A stretch of 64,000 bases of DNA from Thermoanaerobaculia bacterium. Lineage in GTDB: Bacteria; Acidobacteriota; Thermoanaerobaculia; Gp7-AA8. The notes beneath the pieces are model-generated. The model was not told where the DNA came from. It made no database searches and worked only from the letters and a program-made list of their open reading frames with translations. The translations under genes and the position numbers were made by a program. This document shows positions 49,385 through 62,775 of this stretch, piece by piece (the first letter of the stretch is position 1; each line of letters starts with the position of its first letter). Where the stretch lies: contig JAXDGW010000010.1 of the NCBI GenBank assembly GCA_034664845.1, positions 58,936-122,935 of the forward strand, read 5' to 3'.

Positions 49385-49424
49385 ATCGGGCGGAGTATAT
49401 CGAGCGGGTGAGAGAACCGTTTCA

Positions 49425-49478
49425 CGCGAAGCCGCGAAGAACACGAAGAAACTCTTTCGCGACTTCGCGACTTCGCGT
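49425..49478. repeat. Tandem-octamer palindromic element (CGCGAAGN x3 and inverted partner) in the DegT / secreted-protein divergent intergenic region
   Basis: cgcgaagccgcgaagaacacgaag ... ttcgcgacttcgcgacttcgcg. Three 8-nt units on each arm, and the arms are reverse-complementary. Confidence 0.55.
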
Positions 49479-49677
49479 GAGTGGTTCCCAACGCTTTCAC
49501 GACTCCCCCCGTATCACCAACGCCAAACGCACACGAATGCGGCCGCCATCGCGGTCGTACGTGTGCGTTTTGCGTATCGATCTAAACGGCTTTGTTTTCA
49601 ATGCTTTGACCGCATAAATTCATAGACGTTCTTTTTCGTGACGGCGTACCAGAGCGCAACTAACGAAGGAGAACCGA

Positions 49678-50787: not shown

Positions 50788-50872
50788 AATCAAAACCATG
50801 CACCACAGAGGCGCAGAGAGCACAGAGAAATGATTAAACTCTGTGACCTCTGCGCCTCTGTGGTTCAAATCA

Positions 50873-52102: not shown

Positions 52103-52290
52103 AGCGAGGTCGCGAGGTTTGCGGGGTCGCGCAGTGGTTGCTGGGTTGCTGAGTTGGCGAGTTGGCGTGTATGGGCGATCTTCGTCGCGCCGAGCTTATA
52201 GATGCCGACCGAGCAACCAAGCAACCTGGCAACTCAGCAACCCAAACCGCGACCCCGAGACCGCGAGCCCCCGCGACCGCATTTGACAGC
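52103..52290. repeat. ~190-bp imperfect palindromic element built from tandem octamers, in the tyrS/hisZ divergent intergenic region
   Basis: Left arm gcgaggtc|gcgaggtt|tgcggggt|cgcgcagt|ggttgctg|ggttgctg|agttggcg|agttggcg. Right arm caaccaag|caacctgg|caactcag|caacccaa|accgcgac|cccgagac|cgcgagcc|cccgcgac. The arms are reverse-complementary (for example ggggtcgcg/cgcgacccc and gttgctgagttg/caactcagcaac). Confidence 0.6.
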
Positions 52291-52467
52291 CACCGCTCCC
52301 GTCTCTACACTCCGCAAACTCAATGAGCACCCACGTCGCCCAGCAGCACCATCATCACCACAGCTAGGGGTGCCGTGCGCGCCCCGATCGGACGAGGGGC
52401 GCTCAGCGACGATACGTAGCCAACTGACCTGAACCTCTTCCGATTTCGAGAAGAGGTTTTTGAGTTT

Positions 52468-53349
52468 ATGGCCACGAAATCGAGATACCCGACAGGTGTA
52501 CGGCCGCTCTTGGCCGAGGAGACCGCGCGCCGCCGGCGGATGGAATCGCGCTTCGTCGATGCATTCACCGGCGCCGGCTTTGCCGAAGTCGTGCTTCCGA
52601 TCATCGATTATGTCGAGCCGTACGCAGCGCTGGTCGAGCCTGCGACGGCAAAGCAGAGCTATCGATTCGTCGACCGCGAAGGCGACCTGATCGCCATCCG
52701 CTCCGACTTCACGCCGATGCTGGCTCGCGCGCTCGCGCCTGCGATCACGCCCGAGGATCTGCCGATGCGGCTCTTCTACCGCGGCGATGTCATCCGCGTC
52801 GAAGCCTCCCGCCTCGGCGCCAACCGGGAGTTGTTCCAGATCGGCGCGGAGATCGTCGGCGACGACTCCATCGACGCCGATGTAGCGATGCTGCGGCTGG
52901 CGGCCGATCTCGTGCGCGCTCCCGGCGACGAGCCGACGGTCGTCTACAACGACGTCTCGATCGCTGCCGCGTTGATCGCGCAGTCGGCGCCTGTTCGTGA
53001 AGCGCTGGCGGCGAAGCGGATGACCGCGGGAGTGCCTGCTGCCTTACAAACAATCGTCGCGAAACTGATCTCCGGCGACGCGACGTTGAGCGATGTTGCG
53101 CCGTTCGCGCCTGAGGCGGCGGCGAGGTTGTCGGCGATCGAGGAAGCGGTCGCCGGCGACAGCATCTTCACGTTGCACCTCGACGACATCGAAGACAGCG
53201 GCTACTACACTGGCCTTCGCTTTCGCGTCTACGCCGGCGGCGCGCGCACGAAGGTTGCGCAGGGCGGGCGGTACGACAACCTCTACGAACGCTTCGGCCA
53301 GCGCGCCGCGGCGATCGGATTCACCTTCACGATCGACGACCTGGATTGA
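52468..53349 (+). CDS. hisZ: ATP phosphoribosyltransferase regulatory subunit
   Basis: HisRS-like catalytic core without an anticodon-binding domain. 293 aa. Directly precedes a short-form hisG. Confidence 0.85.
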   Translation: MATKSRYPTGVRPLLAEETARRRRMESRFVDAFTGAGFAEVVLPIIDYVEPYAALVEPATAKQSYRFVDREGDLIAIRSDFTPMLARALAPAITPEDLPMRLFYRGDVIRVEASRLGANRELFQIGAEIVGDDSIDADVAMLRLAADLVRAPGDEPTVVYNDVSIAAALIAQSAPVREALAAKRMTAGVPAALQTIVAKLISGDATLSDVAPFAPEAAARLSAIEEAVAGDSIFTLHLDDIEDSGYYTGLRFRVYAGGARTKVAQGGRYDNLYERFGQRAAAIGFTFTIDDLD

Positions 53350-53354
53350 ACGAT

Positions 53355-53963
53355 ATGCGCATTGCGATACCGAAAGGACGGCTGCAGGAGAAGGCGCTCG
53401 CCGTCTTCGCCAACGCCGGCTACGACGTGCCTTCCGAGGCGGATCTGAAGACGCGGAAACTCGTGTTCGAGCGCGGCGGCATCGAATGGATCTTCGTCAA
53501 AGATGGTGACGTACCGGTCTACGTCGAGCATGGCGCCGCCGACGCAGGCATCGCCGGACTCGATCAGATCCTCGAGCACGAATGCACCGCCTATCAGCCG
53601 GTCGAGTTTCCGTTCGGCCACTGCAGGATGATGCTGATCGCCGCGCCGGGCGCGCCTCCGCTGACGAAAGTGGCCACGAAGTATCCGCGCATCACGCGGC
53701 AGTTCCTCGACGCGCGCGGCGTTCACGCGGAGATCGTCCCGCTGAGCGGCTCCGTCGAGCTCGCGGCGGTGCTGAACCTCACGTCGCACGTCGTCGATCT
53801 CGTCGAGACCGGCGAGACCGTGCGCATTCACAAACTGGAGATGCAGGAAGTGGTCGCGGAGATTTCGCCGCGGCTGATCGTCGGAAAGAACTTCTATCGC
53901 ACGGAACCGAAGATGGTGAGAGAACTGATCAACAGAATTGAGGAGAAAGTCCTGTCATCCTGA
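53355..53963 (+). CDS. hisG: ATP phosphoribosyltransferase, short form
   Basis: MRIAIPKGRLQEKAL...ADAGIAGLDQILEH. About 200 aa with no C-terminal regulatory domain. The ATG at 53355 is preferred over the TTG at 53346. Confidence 0.85.
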   Translation: MRIAIPKGRLQEKALAVFANAGYDVPSEADLKTRKLVFERGGIEWIFVKDGDVPVYVEHGAADAGIAGLDQILEHECTAYQPVEFPFGHCRMMLIAAPGAPPLTKVATKYPRITRQFLDARGVHAEIVPLSGSVELAAVLNLTSHVVDLVETGETVRIHKLEMQEVVAEISPRLIVGKNFYRTEPKMVRELINRIEEKVLSS

Positions 53964-53991
53964 GGCGCCTTGGCGGCTCAGGATGACATCA
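53951..53991. repeat. Short palindromic element with TGTCATCCTGAG / CTCAGGATGACA inverted termini at the hisG-hisD junction
   Basis: cctgtcatcctgag-gcgccttggcgg-ctcaggatgacatc. The left arm encodes the last codons and stop of hisG. The same termini bound the 163-bp element at 59570..59732. Confidence 0.65.
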
Positions 53992-53999
53992 AAATCCAA

Positions 54000-55193
54000 A
54001 TGCGAGTCTTTAACGCAAACACCCCCGAATCCGACGCCGCCTTGCGCGCGATTCTCGATCGCCGCAGCGCCACGAACGAGAACGCGTTGCGCGTGGCCGA
54101 CGAGATGATCGCCGGCGTCCGCGCTCGCGGCGATGGGTATGTGGCCGAGGTCATCGCGAAGTTTGACGGCGTGACGATTGGGCCGGACGCGATCCGGACT
54201 ACGCCGCGCGAGGTCACGATTTCGACCGAGATGCAGGCAGCCATCGATCTCGCCATCGACCGCGTCGAAGCGTTCCACCGGCCGCAGCTTCCGCAGTCGT
54301 ACACGCTTGGCAATCTCGAGCATCGCGTGCGGCCGATCCGACGCGTCGGCGTCTATGTGCCGGGCGGACGCGCCGTTTACCTCTCGACGCTGATCATGAC
54401 CGCGGTCCCGGCGCGCATTGCGGGAGTCGACGAGATCGTCTGCATCACAACTTCTTCTGCTGCAGATCGCGACGAGCTTCATTACGTTTGCAACCGCCTC
54501 GGCGTCCGCGAAATCTATCGCTGCGGCGGCGCGGCAGGCGTCGCCGCGGCGGCGATCGGAACGCAATCTCTCGCTCGCGTCGACAAGATCGTCGGGCCGG
54601 GCAACGCCTACGTCACCGCCGCGAAAATGCGCCTCATCGGCGAGGTGGGAATCGACATGACCGCCGGCCCGACCGAGCTGGTGGTCATCGCCGACGACAC
54701 TGCCGACGCACGATTCGTCGTCGCCGATTTGCTCGCGCAAGCGGAGCACGGCGCCGATTCGGAAGTCATCCTTCTGACGACTTCGCAAACGCTGGCCGCG
54801 CAAATGCCGGAGCGCGCGCTCACATTCGTCGTCGCCTCGCTCGACGACGCGATCGTGATCGCCGACCGCATCGCGCCGGAGCATCTCTCCATTCACACCC
54901 GCGATGCGGCAGCGATCGGAGCGCGTGTCCAAAACTGCGGCGCCATCTTCTGCGGTCCGTTCGCGCCGCCCGCGGCCGGCGATTACGTCGTCGGGACGAA
55001 TCACGTGCTCCCCACCGCCGGCAGCGCGCGTTTCTTCTCCCCCCTCGGCGTCTACGATTTCGTCAAGCGCGCCAACGTCATCTCCCTCTCCGCCGAAGAG
55101 CTTGCGGAAATCAGCGATGCCGGCGAACGGATCGCCACGTTCGAAGGACTGCCCGCTCACGCCGCATCGATGGCCATCAGGAGGACCGCATGA
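54000..55193 (+). CDS. hisD: Histidinol dehydrogenase
   Basis: Full HisD with Zn/NAD motifs. The ATG at 54000 (MRVFNANTPES...) places ARGD at the position seen in E. coli HisD. The ORF track starts at the TTG at 53970. Confidence 0.9.
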   Translation: MRVFNANTPESDAALRAILDRRSATNENALRVADEMIAGVRARGDGYVAEVIAKFDGVTIGPDAIRTTPREVTISTEMQAAIDLAIDRVEAFHRPQLPQSYTLGNLEHRVRPIRRVGVYVPGGRAVYLSTLIMTAVPARIAGVDEIVCITTSSAADRDELHYVCNRLGVREIYRCGGAAGVAAAAIGTQSLARVDKIVGPGNAYVTAAKMRLIGEVGIDMTAGPTELVVIADDTADARFVVADLLAQAEHGADSEVILLTTSQTLAAQMPERALTFVVASLDDAIVIADRIAPEHLSIHTRDAAAIGARVQNCGAIFCGPFAPPAAGDYVVGTNHVLPTAGSARFFSPLGVYDFVKRANVISLSAEELAEISDAGERIATFEGLPAHAASMAIRRTA

Positions 55194-56230
55194 GTCGCGC
55201 TGTCGTCGCCGCCATGACCGCCTACACGCTGGAGTTGCGTGAGGCCGAGATCAAGCTGAATCAGAACGAGAGTCCGAGCGATTTTCCGCAGGAGCTCAAG
55301 GAGAGAGTTCTCGCCGAGATGGCGCGGCGCTCGTGGAACATCTATCCCGACTTCGAGTCGATGATGCTTCGCGGCGCGCTGGCGAAGGCGTACGGCTACG
55401 AAGCCGCGAACATTCTCGTCGGCAACGGCTCGAACGAGCTGCTTGCCGCGACGATCCCGACGTTTGTCGGCCCCGGAACGCCGGTCGTTTTTCCGAAGCC
55501 GACGTTTGCGCTGTACGAAAAACTCGTCGCCGTCGCCGGCGGCATCGCGCTGCCCGTCGCGGTCGATCCCTCGACGGGACTGCTGCCGCTCGACGAGATG
55601 CTCCGCGCCATCGCCCGCTGCGACGACGCTGTCGTCATCGTCTGTTCGCCGAACAATCCAACGGGCGGCGTGCTGCCGGACGGCGGGATCGACGCGCTCC
55701 TCGCCACCGGCGCGACCGTGCTTTTCGATCGCGCGTACGGCGATTTTGCCGAGGATGTGATGCCGGAGCTGAACGACCGGCTGGTGACGTTCTCGACGTT
55801 CTCGAAAGCGTGGGGAATGGCCGGATTGCGCGTCGGCTGGCTCGCGTCGACGGCATCGACCTGCCGCGAGATCCGCAAAGTGAAACTCCCCTACTCGCTG
55901 AACATCGTCAGCGAATACGCCGCCGCGACGGCGCTCGAGAACGGCGAGATCCGTACGCGCAACGTCGCCGCCACGATCGCCGAGCGCGCGCGGATGTTCG
56001 CGGCGATGCAGCAAATCGACGGCGTGACGCCGTTCCCATCGCGCTCGAACTTCATCGCGTTCACGACACAGCGCGACGCGAAGGAAGTCTTCAACGCGCT
56101 GCACGCCAGCGGCATCCTTATCCGCGACATCAGCGCCGCGGTCCCGAACGCGCTGCGCGTTTCGGTCGGGACGCCGGCACACAACGACGCATTCCTCACC
56201 GCTCTCGATCAAACAATGAAGCAGGAGTAA
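55190..56230 (+). CDS. hisC: Histidinol-phosphate aminotransferase
   Basis: Class II aminotransferase with PLP-Lys region FSTFSKAWGMAGLRVGW. The ATG at 55190 overlaps the hisD TGA (ATGA). The ORF track embeds it in a longer artefactual ORF, 54488..56230. Confidence 0.9.
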   Translation: MSRAVVAAMTAYTLELREAEIKLNQNESPSDFPQELKERVLAEMARRSWNIYPDFESMMLRGALAKAYGYEAANILVGNGSNELLAATIPTFVGPGTPVVFPKPTFALYEKLVAVAGGIALPVAVDPSTGLLPLDEMLRAIARCDDAVVIVCSPNNPTGGVLPDGGIDALLATGATVLFDRAYGDFAEDVMPELNDRLVTFSTFSKAWGMAGLRVGWLASTASTCREIRKVKLPYSLNIVSEYAAATALENGEIRTRNVAATIAERARMFAAMQQIDGVTPFPSRSNFIAFTTQRDAKEVFNALHASGILIRDISAAVPNALRVSVGTPAHNDAFLTALDQTMKQE

Positions 56231-56233
56231 CCG

Positions 56234-56824
56234 ATGCGACAAGCAACCATTACCCGCACCACCAAAGAAACCAACGTCGCGGTCACGCTCGATCTGGACG
56301 GCGACGGCACGCATTCGAAGATCGACACTCCCGTCGGTTTTCTGTCGCACATGCTCGACGTCATCGCGCGCCACGGCCGCGTCGATCTCGACATCGTCTC
56401 CACCGGCGACACGCACATTGACTATCACCACACGGTCGAAGACACCGCCCTCGTCCTCGGCGAAGCCTTCGCCCAGGCCCTCGGCGACAAGCGCGGCATC
56501 CGCCGTTTCGGCCACGCCTACGTTCCGCTGGACGAAGCGCTGGCGCGCGTCGTCGTCGACTTCGCGGGCCGGCCTTTTCTCGTCTTCGACGTCCCTTTCG
56601 ACCGCGAGATGCTCCTCATCCACAAGGATTTTCCCTTCGCACTCGTCGAGGAGTTCTTCAAGTCGTTCGCGAACAAATGCGCCTGCAACATCCACGTCGA
56701 TCTCATTCGCGGCCGCAACGGCCATCACGCCGCCGAGGCGATTTTCAAGGCGTTCGCGATCGCGCTGCGCGAGGCGAAGAGCGTGGTTGGGAGCGAGATT
56801 CCGAGCACGAAGGGTGTGATTTAA
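56234..56824 (+). CDS. hisB: Imidazoleglycerol-phosphate dehydratase
   Basis: TKETNVAVTLDLDG...HHTVEDTALVLG...HHAAEAIFKA. Monofunctional, 196 aa. Confidence 0.9.
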   Translation: MRQATITRTTKETNVAVTLDLDGDGTHSKIDTPVGFLSHMLDVIARHGRVDLDIVSTGDTHIDYHHTVEDTALVLGEAFAQALGDKRGIRRFGHAYVPLDEALARVVVDFAGRPFLVFDVPFDREMLLIHKDFPFALVEEFFKSFANKCACNIHVDLIRGRNGHHAAEAIFKAFAIALREAKSVVGSEIPSTKGVI

Positions 56825-56927
56825 CGAAAGGGGTCAGGTCGAAACCGAAACTGACGACGGCCATCGATGAACCACTCGCTCTACTCAAGCTCGTCGTCAG
56901 TTTCGGTTTCGACCTGACCCCTTTCGC
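56825..56927. repeat. 103-bp palindromic element (35-bp perfect arms) between hisB and hisH
   Basis: cgaaaggggtcaggtcgaaaccgaaactgacgacg - 33-nt loop - cgtcgtcagtttcggtttcgacctgacccctttcg. It starts 1 nt after the hisB stop, and hisH starts 7 nt after it ends. Confidence 0.7.
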
Positions 56928-56933
56928 TAACCC

Positions 56934-57530
56934 ATGATCACGACTCTCATCGATTCACCCGTCGCGAACGTCGCCAACATCGCTCGTGCGCTGCGCACTG
57001 TCGGCGCGGAGCTGGTTGTCACGCGCGATCCGGACGCGATTGCAGCGGCGGAGAAACTTGTCCTGCCGGGCGTCGGTTCCTTTATCGCCGCGATGCGATG
57101 GCTCGAAGAGAATCGCATCGATGCAGCGATCAGCACGGCGGTCAAACGCGGCGCGACGCTGCTCGGCGTTTGCGTCGGACATCAGCTCTTGTTCGATCTC
57201 TCGCACGAAATGGGGAGCACGCGCGGCCTCGGCTTGGTGCGCGGCGAAGTACACAAATACGAGGGCTCGCTTCCGGTACCGCAGATCGGATGGAATCGCG
57301 TGAAGGCCGCCGAGGGCTCGGCACTCTTCGACGGCGTCGAGAATGGCGTCTTCTACTTCGTCAACTCCTACGCGGCTTCGAACGCGCCCGACGAGATTGC
57401 GCGCGCTGATTACGGTAGGCCGTTCACCGCGGCGGTTCAACACGATCGCGTGTTCGGCGTGCAGTTTCATCCCGAAAAATCGTCGGCGGCAGGTCTGCGC
57501 GTCTTGAGGAACTTCGTGACATGGACGTAA
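56934..57530 (+). CDS. hisH: Imidazole glycerol phosphate synthase, glutamine amidotransferase subunit
   Basis: Class I GATase: GVCVGHQLL (nucleophile Cys) and FGVQFHPEKS. Confidence 0.9.
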   Translation: MITTLIDSPVANVANIARALRTVGAELVVTRDPDAIAAAEKLVLPGVGSFIAAMRWLEENRIDAAISTAVKRGATLLGVCVGHQLLFDLSHEMGSTRGLGLVRGEVHKYEGSLPVPQIGWNRVKAAEGSALFDGVENGVFYFVNSYAASNAPDEIARADYGRPFTAAVQHDRVFGVQFHPEKSSAAGLRVLRNFVTWT

Positions 57531-58987
57531 TCCCTTCGCTCGACCTCCTCGGCGGGCAAGTCGTCCGTCTGCTGCACGGCGATTTCGCGAACGTGACGGC
57601 GTACGGCGATCCGGAGAAGGTTCTCGATTCACTCGAGGTGCCACGCGGATCGCGGCTGCACATCGTCGACCTCGAAGCGTCGCGCAGCGGCAGACCGGTC
57701 GAACTGGAGGCCGTGCGGCGATTAGCGAAACGCGATCTGCGCGTTCAGGCCGGCGGCGGAATTCGCTCGCTCGCCGATGCGAAGGCGTGGATCGACGCCG
57801 GCGCCGAGAAGGTCGTGATCGGAACCGTCGCCGCAGACGCGCCCGAGGTCTTGCGTGAGATCGTCGCGGCGCTCGGCGCCGATCGCGTCATCGCCGCCGT
57901 CGATGTGCGCGACGGCGTCGTACGCGTGCACGGCTGGGAGCGTGACGCGGGCGCGACGCTCGCCGAGGTTCTCGAGCGCGTCGAATCCCTCGGCATCAGA
58001 GAAGCGCTCATCACCGACATCAACAAAGACGGCGCGATGCGTGGGCCGTCGTTCGCGCTTTACCGCTCGCTGCGCACGAAACTGCGCATCATCGCCAGCG
58101 GCGGCGTCTCCACCCTCGGCGATGTCGTCTCGCTGAGCCGCATCGGCAGCGTCGGCGCATGCGTCATCGGGCGCGCGCTGCTCGACGGCCGCGTGCAACT
58201 CGCCGAGGCGCGGGCGCGTGTGGCGACACCGAACGCGATTCCGGAGCGCGTCATCCCCTGCCTCGACGTGCGCGACGGCCGCGTGGTCAAGGGCATCAAC
58301 TTCGTCGATATCCGCGACGCCGGCGATCCGGTCGAATGCGCCGTGCGATACGAAGCCGAGGGCGCCGACGAGATGGTGATTCTCGACATCTCCGCGACCG
58401 ACGCGAATCGCACGACGGCTCTCGACACGGTGCATCGCGTCTCCGAATCGTTGTTCATCCCGCTCACCGTCGGTGGCGGCGTGCGGACGATCGAAGATTT
58501 TCGCGCGTTGCTCCGCGCCGGCGCGGACCGCGTGGCCATCAACACCGCCGCGCTTCGCAATCCGCGGCTCATCGCCGATTGCGCCGCCGAGTTTGGCGTG
58601 CAGGCCGTCGTGCTTTCGTGCGATGCCAAACGGATCGGCGATCACTACGAGGCGATGGTGCGCAGCGGCAAGGAATCGTCGAGCGTCGATGCCGTGGTGT
58701 GGTGCCGGCGCGCCGAGGAGCTGGGCACGGGCGAGATCCTGCTCACGTCGGTCGATCGCGATGGAACGAACGCGGGATACGACATCGAGCTGCTGCGCGC
58801 CGTCACCAGCGTCGTTCGCATCAGCGTCATCGCCTCGGGTGGCGCCGGCTCTCTCGAGCACTTCCGCGACGCCATCGAAGCCGGCGGCGCGCGCGCAGTG
58901 CTGGCGGCGTCGCTGTTTCATGACCGGCGGCTGTCGATTGGCGATGTGAAGCGCTTTCTGGCAAATGAAGGGATACCCGTACGATGA
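57521..58987 (+). CDS. hisA-hisF: In-frame fusion: ProFAR isomerase (HisA) + imidazole glycerol phosphate synthase cyclase subunit (HisF)
   Basis: Single 488-aa ORF. Residues 1 to about 233 are HisA ([17 protein letters not shown]...[20 protein letters not shown]). HisF follows directly (...[38 protein letters not shown]...). Across the junction ...gtg gcg aca ccg aac gcg att ccg gag cgc gtc atc ccc tgc ctc gac gtg... there is no stop codon and no ATG/GTG/TTG. Confidence 0.75.
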
Positions 58988-59568
58988 CTGATTTGAAATT
59001 CGACGCATCAGGCCTCATCCCCGCAGTCATTCAAGACGCGCGAACCGGCGAAGTTCTGACGCTCGCGTACATGAATCAGGCTTCGCTCGACCGCACGCGC
59101 GAGAGCGGTGAGACGTGGCTCTGGAGCCGCTCGCGCAAGGAGCTCTGGCACAAAGGCGCGACGTCAGGCAATACGCAGCGCGTCGTCGCCATCAGTGAAG
59201 ACTGCGACGGCGACGCGCTCGTCGTCAGCGTCATTCCGAACGGACCGGCGTGTCACACCGGCGCGCGATCGTGCTTCGCCGGCACGCCGCCGCGCACGCT
59301 CGATCGGCTGATGAACGTTCTGCGTGATCGGCGCGAAAAGCGTCCCGAGGGCTCGTACAGCGCGAAGCTGTTCAGCGGAGGACGAGGCAGGATTGCGAAA
59401 AAAATCGGCGAGGAGGCCACCGAGGTCGTCATCGCCGCGCTGAGCGAAACGCGCGAGCGCATGGTCAGCGAGATCGCCGATCTGGTCTTTCACGTCACCG
59501 TGCTGATGGCGGATGAAGGGATCGACTGGAGCGAGATTGAGGGGGAGCTGGCGGGCAGAGAAAGGTAA
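58984..59568 (+). CDS. hisIE: Bifunctional phosphoribosyl-AMP cyclohydrolase / phosphoribosyl-ATP pyrophosphatase
   Basis: HisI domain (LAYMNQASL...[12 protein letters not shown]...CDGDAL) followed by the HisE MazG-like domain. ATGA overlap with the hisAF stop. Confidence 0.9.
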
Positions 59569-59569
59569 A

Positions 59570-59732
59570 CCTGTCATCCTGAATCGCCGAAGGACACGAA
59601 GTGCCGGAGGACGATGAAGGACCCCCCGCGCATGTGCACGGTCGGGTGGTGGAACTGGTGACAACGCAATGCGCAGGGGGTCCTTCGACCGTCCTCCGGC
59701 ACTTCGTGTCCTGCGGCGGCTCAGGATGACAG
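59570..59732. repeat. 163-bp near-perfect palindromic element with TGTCATCCTGA terminal inverted repeats, downstream of hisIE
   Basis: Left arm cctgtcatcctgaatcgccgaaggacacgaagtgccggaggacgatgaaggaccccc. The right arm is its reverse complement (gggggtccttcgaccgtcctccggcacttcgtgtcctgcggcggctcaggatgacag). The central loop contains a further gcgcatg/catgcgc-type stem. It lies between the convergent hisIE and M23 peptidase genes. Confidence 0.7.
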
Positions 59733-59876
59733 CGTGGATGACAGGGGACGACTGCGCGGGTCATACGAGCGCTCGCACCACAACCCTTGACGAGCGACCG
59801 CCTGCCGAATCGCGAGGAGCTTCGGCGACAACGCGCGAAGCGCAACCAACCGACAACCGACAACGCGCGAAGCGCA

Positions 59877-60755
59877 CTAAAACGCGTTGAGGATGTACTC
59901 GAGCGGATTCACCGGGTTGTTGTTCAAGCGCACTTCGTAGTGGAGGTGCGGGCCGGTGGAGCGGCCGGTCGAGCCGACGTACGCGATGATGTCGCCGCGC
60001 TTGACGTGCTGGCCGGGCTTGGCCGCGTACGCCGAGAGGTGGCCGTAGCGCGTCGAGTAGCCGTATCCGTGCGAGAGATAGATGACGTTGCCGTAGCCGT
60101 TGGCCCATTCGGCCTTGACGACGATGCCGTCAGCGGGGGCGCGTACGGCCTGTCCGATGGCGGAAGAGATATCGACTGCGTTGTGAGTGCCGGCTTCACC
60201 GGTGAACGGATCGGAGCGGCCTCCGAAACCATCCGTCAGGATTCCGCGGACCGGCGCGATCGACGGCGTAGATGCCAGGAGCTGCGACTGCGCCACGAGC
60301 TTCTGTTCGAGGACTGACAGATCGCCTTCGATACGGCGGGAGCGGAAGGCCATCTTGTCGACGTCATCGCGATACGGATTGTCGCCCAGGTCTGAGGGGC
60401 GAAGGCCGCCGACGCCGCCCTGCTGCGCGCTGTCATCGAGGCTGCTGATTCCGGCGTAGATCGCCAGTTTGCGGGTGCGGTCTTCAACGGTGCGAAGCTG
60501 CCCGCGGAGTGATTCGACCGACTTGCTGAACTGTTCGTTGGCGGTCTGGAGGTCTTTGTTCTCGTGGCGAAGTTTGCTGAGCTCGTGCGTCTGCGAGAGC
60601 GAGGTGAAGTACTGGACGGAGAAGAAGGTCGATAGACAGAGAGAGGAGGTCAGGACCGACAGAACAGAGAAGAGCAGGCGGTGGGACACCTTCAACTTCC
60701 GGAACTTGGCCCGCGCATGCGGGACAAAGATGATTGTTGAATAGCGTTGATCCAT
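59877..60755 (-). CDS. M23-family (LytM/EnvC-like) peptidoglycan endopeptidase with N-terminal TM and coiled coil
   Basis: The C-terminal domain has HNAVDI...GYGNVIYLSHGYGYSTRYGHL...GSTGRSTGPHLHYEV (HxxxD / HxH zinc motifs). The N-terminal coiled-coil is EnvC/NlpD-like. Confidence 0.85.
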   Translation of the reverse strand: MDQRYSTIIFVPHARAKFRKLKVSHRLLFSVLSVLTSSLCLSTFFSVQYFTSLSQTHELSKLRHENKDLQTANEQFSKSVESLRGQLRTVEDRTRKLAIYAGISSLDDSAQQGGVGGLRPSDLGDNPYRDDVDKMAFRSRRIEGDLSVLEQKLVAQSQLLASTPSIAPVRGILTDGFGGRSDPFTGEAGTHNAVDISSAIGQAVRAPADGIVVKAEWANGYGNVIYLSHGYGYSTRYGHLSAYAAKPGQHVKRGDIIAYVGSTGRSTGPHLHYEVRLNNNPVNPLEYILNAF

Positions 60756-62703: not shown

Positions 62704-62775
62704 AAAACCTTTTCATCCGCAGATGACGCAGATGTACACAGATCTGCGTTCATCTGCGACATCTGCGGATAAAAA

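Follow-up and report, generated by a model that had tools for sequence, protein, structure and literature searches.

Palindromes at the his operon of a Thermoanaerobaculia bacterium as probable members of a TGTC-tagged repeat family partnered by an SsnA-type nuclease

SsnA is a single-domain GIY-YIG nuclease which binds the NTS hairpin of Neisseria only as single-stranded DNA (ssDNA) and cuts just upstream of it (Chenal et al. 2025, PMC11893778). Binding of ssDNA only and cleavage a few nucleotides upstream were found for the Neisseria and Wolbachia homologues; furthermore, Ssn-related motifs (SRM) flank ssnA homologues across phyla, with a role outside Neisseria that is unknown (PMC11893778). 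Here, we have analyzed two palindromes at the histidine biosynthesis (his) operon of a Thermoanaerobaculia bacterium, located within a stretch of 64,000 nucleotides (assembly GCA_034664845.1, contig JAXDGW010000010.1, positions 58,936 to 122,935), which is called the window in the following. Both palindromes probably belong to one Thermoanaerobaculia repeat family consisting of divergent (C/T)GTC-tagged hairpins of the repetitive extragenic palindromic (REP)/SRM type, partnered by an SsnA-type nuclease.

Repeats of this system have also been described as CGTC/TGTC-tagged REPs (Di Nocera et al. 2013, PMC3733652). These repeats form head-to-head dimers beside the 3' ends of open reading frames (ORFs), their termini give stop codons, and no dedicated transposase is assigned to them. 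Their defining feature is a terminal tag, CGTC, TGTC or CCTC, after which the stem begins with A and T (PMC3733652). The Ssn/SRM system and the CGTC-tagged REPs have thus been published already, the elaborate variant described here is previously unreported; a literature search with the sequence strings gave only unrelated papers among the matches listed for the terminus, such as eukaryotic gene or primer studies, and no papers for the loop.

The 11-mer TGTCATCCTGA was found exactly four times in the window, forming two inverted pairs (53953, plus strand, with 53978-53988, minus strand; 59572, plus strand, with 59721-59731, minus strand). The number expected by chance is 0.05, and four matches were reached in none of 100 dinucleotide-preserving shuffles. 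The two palindromes and their parts are as follows.

53952 to 53988, no strand assigned: small (relic) copy, C-TGTCA...TGACA, a 37-bp stem
53961 to 53963, plus strand: hisG stop codon TGA, inside the left terminus of the small copy; HisG ends ...EEKVLSS*
54000 to 54002, plus strand: hisD start codon ATG, 11 nt downstream of the small copy
59571 to 59732, no strand assigned: large copy, near full-length, 162 bp
59571 to 59592, no strand assigned: left half of the outer stem including the TGTC tag, pairs with 59712 to 59732
59592 to 59605, no strand assigned: left side module GGACACGAAGTGCC, a mini-hairpin with a GAA loop
59606 to 59627, no strand assigned: left half of the inner stem, GGAGGACGATGAAGGACCCCCC, pairs with 59676 to 59697
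59628 to 59675, no strand assigned: non-palindromic central cassette, holds CACGG-TC-GGGTGGTGG
59698 to 59711: right side module GGCACTTCGTGTCC, partner of the left side module
59712 to 59732, no strand assigned: right half of the outer stem, TGCGGCGGCTCAGGATGACAG

A preliminary description of this DNA had listed copies of 41 bp and 163 bp, and the inverted-repeat pair proved to be real, with very stable folds at both sites. The arms of the small copy (53953-53969 and 53972-53988, 17+17 nt) are 94% complementary; it keeps just the outer stem CTGTCATCCTGAG...CTCAGGATGACA with a 12-nt interior, and its RNA fold reached -31.1 kcal/mol (z = -4.85). For the large copy, long arms and an inner palindrome had been reported and were both found: the arms comprise 57 nt with 84% complementarity (ungapped), the inner palindrome spans 59616-59633 and 59669-59686, and the RNA fold reached -131.2 kcal/mol (z = -13.8). 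This copy lies directly 3' of the hisIE stop codon (59566-59568), with a convergent M23 peptidase gene on the other side, and scored 74 bits against the family profile (nhmmer). Both copies carry TGTCAT at each of their outer ends. The inner-stem motif GGAGGACGATGAAGGACCCCCC is the one used in the metagenome scan described below, and CACGG-TC-GGGTGGTGG corresponds to the family core CCGG-n-GGGYGGYGG. A second GGATGACAG was observed at 59737-59745, 4 nt past the right end of the large copy; comparable partial terminus duplications occur in 6 of 226 family flanks.

A terminator scan revealed no T-run after either copy, the bases downstream being TCAAAATCC and CGTGGATGAC. An Rfam scan of the whole window yielded no match at gathering thresholds; E-value scans returned only plant microRNA-precursor models far under their thresholds, as is the case for any generic long hairpin. 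The string GGCTCAGGATGA is identical to 12 nt of the 16S rRNA 5' end; we take this to be a coincidence, since nothing supported a link.

The preliminary description had proposed a dispersed family of the REP/BIME (bacterial interspersed mosaic element) or MITE (miniature inverted-repeat transposable element) kind and no simple terminator. Metagenomes were scanned with the interior motif only (GGGGGTCCTTCGA-N0-2-CGTCCTCCG), thus leaving the terminus outside the query, and loci were assigned to Thermoanaerobaculia by the source names of homologous proteins. The motif was detected at no fewer than 120 loci and hence is not restricted to the two sites at the his operon. Among the matches listed, 87 of 93 arms ended in ...CGGCGGCTCAGGATGACA(G), a terminus absent from the query. 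A collection of 114 non-redundant complete copies was obtained, with a modal length of 181-189 bp and flanks that were all different; the invariance of termini and of one inner arm in this collection is partly imposed by the way the copies were collected. In a profile search, the background density amounted to roughly one copy in 27 kb. Seven loci attributed to the 4.08-Mb contig Ga0207694_10000001 (~71 kb in all) hold 12 complete copies, and we estimate 100-300 copies per genome.

The true ends of the element are C/TGTCA...TGACA/G, where the slash marks the boundary. No target-site duplication was found in 95 of the 114 copies; the others carry direct repeats of 1-3 bp, mostly of 2 bp. A target-site motif beyond the C...G extension of the palindrome was not detected in the 114 copies. 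Identical copies at different sites were not observed, identity within a genome being ~78-89% with a maximum of about 89%; recent transposition was rejected for this reason.

The suspected intergenic bias was confirmed, as 109 of the 114 copies lie between genes. Elements are read into by 87 genes; the stop codon of 37 of these ends 0-5 nt ahead of the element, and 18 use the TGA of the element itself, as does hisG here. Altogether, 55 of these genes (63%) have their stop at most 5 nt before the element or within its terminus. Apparently, elements settle immediately after stop codons, where they would be tolerated. The exact terminus hairpin of 13+13 nt (GTCATCCTGAG-type) was found at 76 genome loci of many phyla, including soil and freshwater bacteria; 64% of these hairpins abut an ORF end as compared to 16% of control positions. 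Terminus hairpin and interior motif had no match in 2.9 million viral contigs, and the 50-bp cross-phylum palindrome had none in 72,556 plasmid records.

The canonical copy of ~185 bp combines two TGTC-tagged hairpin units head to head. It consists of an outer stem of 18-19 bp (CTGTCATCCTGAGCCGCCG / CGGCGGCTCAGGATGACAG), two independently variable side hairpins with the tips GCGAAGC or GCTTCGC, and an inner stem of ~20 bp (GGAGGACGGTCGAAGGACCCCC and its complement); the left arm runs from CTGTCATCCTGAGCCGCCGGAG across the side hairpin up to GGAGGAC. In the centre, ~50 nt are non-palindromic and oriented, with the conserved core already mentioned. RNAalifold was applied to 34 canonical copies in common orientation (alignment A2) and returned a four-way junction, in which outer and inner stems are invariant and the side hairpins show many compensatory changes. 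Double changes were counted in 85 cells as compared to 24.6 in shuffles (none of 500 reached the observed value) and to 1-11 cells with slid partners. We also considered, and rejected, one long hairpin in which the left and right side modules pair with each other: it left 12-21 of the 34 sequences unpaired at variable positions, with covariation below that of shuffles.

The orientation of the centre showed no bias, neither relative to transcription in co-directional contexts (12 versus 12) nor relative to the gene reading in (26 sense versus 24 antisense). This argues against a strand-specific RNA gene, which was therefore rejected. Orthologous sites with flanks 80-97% identical mostly retain the element. 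Three orthologous pairs with flanking genes 89-97% identical differ inside it: L094 and L112 share identical arms around unrelated centres, the centre is inverted between L108 (8225-8409) and L138 (347-531), and the side modules differ between L143 and L198. Identical arms around a replaced or inverted cassette, together with swapped side hairpins, suggest recombination between arms and ectopic gene conversion among copies. At one further site, the element is present in L117 and the site is empty in L150; at another, L138 holds a different palindrome family.

The history of the two copies was followed in syntenic his operons of relatives, six copies of which were aligned (alignment A1). The source names of HisD homologues place the window in Thermoanaerobaculia, Acidobacteriota. 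Between hisG and hisD, copies of ~115 bp (L081, HisD 93% identical), ~150 bp (L082, 92%) and ~55 bp (L085, 88%) start at the same base as the copy in the window, and all HisG proteins end in LSS*. The long copies share their interior with the large copy of the window. Hence, the small copy is what internal deletion has left of a longer element at this site rather than the minimal family member it had been taken for; the alignment and the intermediates in L081, L082 and L085 also demonstrate that the two copies of the window are homologous. Each of the four lineages whose HisD is at least 88% identical has kept an element at this site. In L086 (HisD 86% identical), a decayed copy TGTCACCCCGAG...AGAGATGACA is read through, giving a longer HisG tail. 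We noted that at L086 9900-10000, and likewise in L087 and L088, the decayed copy TGTCACCCCGAG...CCAGAGATGACA lacks the TGA and is translated as an 18-aa C-terminal extension; HisG comprises 215 aa as compared to 202.

In the outgroups L211, L212 and L213 (HisD 70-76% identical), hisG and hisD overlap and no element is present, so the element at this junction is an insertion, and both empty and filled sites exist among relatives. One old insertion split the ancestrally overlapping genes, supplied the hisG stop codon and later shrank, leaving a stem of 37 bp. Behind hisIE, the operon is closed by a second copy; at this position an element is found in the window and in L085, and none in L081, L082 and L211. 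The small copy had been described as overlapping both the hisG stop and the hisD start. The first part holds; hisD starts 11 nt behind the element, as alignment of N-termini with homologues places the start at 54000 (MRVFN...; MRVFN / MRLYK). The called HisD of 407 aa begins inside the hairpin; the ATG in GGATGACA (53983-53985) is out of frame in the window. Since the insertion split an overlapping gene pair, an effect of the small copy on translational coupling of hisG and hisD, as proposed from the sequence, is plausible.

Clustering of the ORFs at the loci revealed a protein of ~100 aa with a GIY-YIG domain (Pfam PF01541, E = 4.4e-16). Its gene occurs at six loci representing five independent contexts, and two elements bracket it wherever both sides are visible (L125, L128/L163, L182 and L194; one side is visible in L190). 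Outside this element-ssnA-element composite, the loci have unrelated flanks. With the Neisseria SsnA homologue the protein shares 44% identity, and the residues aligned with Neisseria Y6, Y17 and E64 are invariant in the alignment; mutation of these residues abolished cleavage by SsnA (PMC11893778). No NCBIfam model exists for this nuclease. A leader of ~100 nt is conserved between the upstream element and the start of the gene in L125 (5579-5620), L128, L182, L190 and L194; it carries an invariant inverted repeat CTCCTCGGAATGGA...CCGAGGGAT (alignment A3) and possibly acts as a regulatory structure.

At least 7,998 homologues of the GIY-YIG protein reached E <= 1e-5 among the best 8,000 candidates scored. 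In 8 of 8 other taxa examined, (C/T)GTC-tagged hairpins or dimers bracket the homologue, namely in Micavibrio, Dialister, Neisseria, Novosphingobium, Azospirillum, Sinorhizobium, Planktothrix and Spirosoma; the Dialister hairpins include the exact string CGTCATCCTGAGCGAAGCGAAGGATC. This association explains the occurrence of the terminus hairpin across phyla. We also observed that ssnA homologues and their hairpins lie between adjacent genes of the same pathway or system: cobS and cobT in Micavibrio (L214), sufB and sufC in Azospirillum (L224), gltA and lpxB in S. meliloti (L225), which has two tandem copies, and MmeI and drmA in Planktothrix (L226). The first two of these positions are probably inside an operon. 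Such a location looks like that of an inserted mobile cassette.

The family shares several properties with the SRM (NTS/dRS3)/SsnA system: an oriented (C/T)GTC-A-T tag 5' of the hairpin repeat, so that HGTC is followed by W and Y; an estimated 100-300 intergenic copies per genome; and the arrangement repeat-ssnA-repeat with a cd10448-type single-domain GIY-YIG protein of ~100 aa having the same catalytic residues. However, the SRM unit is an inverted repeat of 20-50 nt, whereas canonical copies here are dimers of ~185 bp with arms of ~65 nt; the relic is a hairpin of 37 nt. The element is further distinguished by its outer stem of 18 bp and inner stem of ~20 bp, by side hairpins that vary and by a central cassette that can be inverted, as well as by its host, a free-living soil lineage of Acidobacteria, where it is known from sequence.

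Compared with the CGTC/TGTC-tagged REPs of PMC3733652, the TGTC tag followed by AT (here TGTC-AT-CCTGAG) and GAAG-type loops are common to both. The same holds for head-to-head dimers with a conserved spacer, heterodimers with unlike stems, a distance of at most 20 bp from ORF 3' ends, stop-providing termini, and a lack of an associated tyrosine transposase. The canonical REP described there has a stem of 8-9 bp, a loop of 4-5 nt and a CCA tail. In contrast, the family here has no CCA tail, its arms of ~65 nt contain an internal side hairpin, and its tag is base-paired to the opposite dimer end in an outer stem of 18-19 bp. In PMC3733652, to the extent consulted, Acidobacteria are named for genes of terminal inverted repeat-associated tyrosine transposases (TIRYT) and not as hosts of CGTC repeats.

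Similarities extend to other palindromic elements. REPINs (REP doublets forming hairpins) moved by REP-associated tyrosine transposases (RAYT; Bertels and Rainey 2011, PMC3116915) are likewise inverted hairpin doublets that form a long hairpin, preserve it by compensatory changes and persist vertically at orthologous sites; in addition, a repeat-bracketed gene occupies one fixed locus, here in the one population sampled repeatedly. The tag and the enzyme differ, with TGTC and a GIY-YIG nuclease here and GTAG and a Y1 HUH transposase for REPINs. The BIMEs of E. coli, i.e. REP pairs with a central motif, resemble the family as a mosaic of constant and variable modules placed after stops and inside operons, and likely in their role as mRNA 3' hairpins; their sequence is unrelated, and they belong to the GTAG class associated with RAYTs. 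Rickettsia palindromic elements (RPE), with RPE-4 and RPE-6 of the CGTC class, can also join coding sequence, for which the element-encoded LSS* end of HisG and the 18-aa HisG tail of L086 are counterparts; however, RPEs often lie inside genes, whereas the family here is mainly intergenic.

The assignment to the SRM/(C/T)GTC-tagged REPs is demonstrated by association. In the mechanism we envisage by analogy, the cognate Ssn protein would recognize the TGTC-tagged TGTCATCCTGAG arm on whichever strand is single-stranded. This interaction might underlie spread or maintenance of the repeats, or might serve in ssDNA restriction. The elements would be co-transcribed and, as a by-product, give very stable RNA hairpins at 3' ends or between cistrons.

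Several observations weigh against this assignment. The pairing of the Ssn homologue with the element is putative and derives from the gene-repeat association. SsnA is established as a nuclease and not as a transposase. The published SRM search sequence, HGTCWYN(0-2)YYVSBRHN(0-5)WNVSBRGN(0-2)RNCYNB, gave no match in the window and none in the 114 elements; it matches the Neisseria, Azospirillum, Sinorhizobium and Micavibrio controls and has no match in the Planktothrix, Spirosoma and Dialister flanks. An ssnA homologue was found neither in the window nor in the his-operon loci of the closest relatives. One homologue (P0143) occupies one fixed locus in one population sampled many times, therefore a domesticated gene fits as well as a mobile one. 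Furthermore, since copies within a genome are only ~78-89% identical, there is no sign of recent bursts, and the invariance of stems and termini is in part an artefact of copy collection.

Four other explanations were weighed against (C/T)GTC-tagged hairpins with an Ssn partner. It appears quite unlikely that the palindromes are dedicated cis-acting RNA elements of the his operon under selection for this function, with one hairpin serving in processing or stability between cistrons and the other acting as terminator or stabilizer at the 3' end. Occupation of the hisG-hisD site in all four lineages, the very stable folds and a post-stop position resembling that of E. coli REPs would fit such a role. 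Liang and Deutscher are said to have found in 2015 that these REPs modulate expression of the upstream gene. However, the size at the hisG-hisD site varies from 37 to ~150 bp, in L086 the copy has degenerated and become coding, the centre has no preferred orientation relative to transcription, a T-run is missing, more than 100 copies lie beside unrelated genes, and the same intergenic site may hold another palindrome family in a relative. A REPIN-type element mobilized by a RAYT or TIRYT (Y1 HUH) transposase, as in Pseudomonas, E. coli and some Acidobacteria, is very improbable in our view. The inverted hairpin doublet, the lack of target-site duplications and the vertical persistence do resemble REPINs, and TIRYTs are encoded by Acidobacteria according to PMC3733652. 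Yet the GTAG tag is absent and the gene bracketed by elements encodes a GIY-YIG nuclease. A search with phmmer and jackhmmer using E. coli RayT and Y1_Tnp protein queries, which covered ~1.65 Mb of loci and not whole genomes, gave a single Y1 gene (L005, from a Rhizobium metagenome-assembled genome) with unrelated inverted repeats of its own.

The likeness to REPs suspected in the preliminary description was thus borne out for the (C/T)GTC-tagged class; the likeness to MITEs was not, as target-site duplications are lacking and the element hence is not a classical MITE of a DDE transposase. Long TG...CA terminal inverted repeats, a length of 160-190 bp and intergenic dispersal would be expected for an insertion sequence deletion derivative moved by a DDE transposase recognizing 5'-TG...CA-3' inverted repeats. 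Given that 95 of 114 copies lack a direct repeat at their ends, that clustering of 916 element-adjacent ORFs revealed no enriched transposase family, and that plasmid and viral collections contained no matches, we consider such an origin scarcely credible. An assembly artefact in the form of a fold-back chimera at a contig join is practically negligible. It is true that two JGI and two Logan contigs, found by exact protein look-up and derived from two samples, end inside or beside the large copy, at the central ~45 nt (59628-59675 of the window; L001, 10640-10680; L003; L002 and L004), and the final ~45 nt of L001 differ from the loop in the window at several positions. This could be due to strain variation or to a heterogeneous, possibly invertible, centre; the centre of the large copy is therefore less certain than its arms. 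However, each arm is covered by independent contigs, more than 100 homologous complete copies lie within long contigs of many samples, including the 4.08-Mb contig, and contig breaks are expected from a repeat with an invertible centre.

A more far-reaching version of the Ssn assignment is that the element is a working DNA-level module of an Ssn system with new specificity, beyond a decaying selfish repeat. We regard it as a tentative and rather doubtful proposal. It is suggested by stems that are invariant (partly an effect of collection), side hairpins that are hypervariable yet structured, a central cassette that flips or is exchanged between orthologues, and the precise placement after stops. 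The composite element-ssnA-element might be an autonomous, GIY-YIG-driven mobile unit copying dimers through ssDNA; alternatively, the dimers might label genes so that an Ssn protein could control ssDNA, either incoming or replicating. If true, this would extend Ssn/SRM past the published motif definition and give the system a role outside Neisseria.

The probable assignment to Ssn-partnered hairpins ties common and easily missed GTCATCCTGAG-type hairpins to the experimentally characterized Ssn ssDNA nucleases. The published SRM motif misses whole lineages, the Thermoanaerobaculia and probably also the Planktothrix, Spirosoma and Dialister types. Ssn enzymes are under development as site-specific ssDNA tools, for which these lineages offer new candidate enzyme-site pairs. 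With respect to genome evolution, the element split an overlapping and presumably translationally coupled gene pair, donated stop codons and C-terminal residues, and itself changes by inversion and exchange of its cassette. In practice, such elements break short-read assemblies and mislead the calling of start codons, as for the 407-aa HisD.

The genes surrounding the two copies were assigned by Pfam.

52468 to 53349: hisZ
53346 to 53963: hisG
54000 (ATG) to 55193: hisD
about 55190 to 56230: hisC
56234 to 56824: hisB
56934 to 57530: hisH
57521 to 58987: fused hisA-hisF
58984 to 59568: hisIE
59877 to 60755: M23 peptidase, convergent

The fused hisA-hisF gene is one ORF of 488 aa with two His_biosynth domains. 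It is also called with 488 aa in L081, L082, L085, L211 and L213; L212 has a separate gene of 250 aa.

Upstream of hisZ, a classical his attenuator was found (52283-52467). It comprises a promoter-like TTGACA-17-TACACT (52283-52311) and a leader ORF (52323-52367), which encodes MSTHVAQQHHHHHS* and has a run of five His codons. A terminator hairpin, GAACCTCTTC...GAAGAGGTTTTTGAG, follows, its end lying immediately 5' of the hisZ ATG. The Rfam model His_leader gave no match at its gathering threshold upstream of hisZ.

A second palindrome family, AAAGGGGTCAGGTCGAAACCGAAACTGACG..., lies between hisB and hisH (56821-56930), with 39-nt arms that are 97% complementary. Its GGGGTCAG fits GGGGWSAS, which according to Di Nocera et al. 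(2013, PMC3733652) is the motif of inverted repeats flanking RAYT-like TIRYT transposase genes. The same family also occurs at the hisAF-hisIE junction of L081, L082 and L085. These filled sites read cgATGA, an insert of ~125 nt including AGGAG, and ATGActg; the junction in the window consists of the ATGA stop/start overlap only. Four more intergenic palindromes are located at 49422-49480, 50799-50867, 52142-52244 and 62710-62775. They represent other families made of short periodic units (CACGCGAAGCCGCGAAG, CACAGAGGCGCAGAGAGCACAGAG, GGGTTGCTGAGTTGGCGAGTTG and CATCCGCAGATGACGCAGATG), and families akin to these fill other his junctions in relatives.

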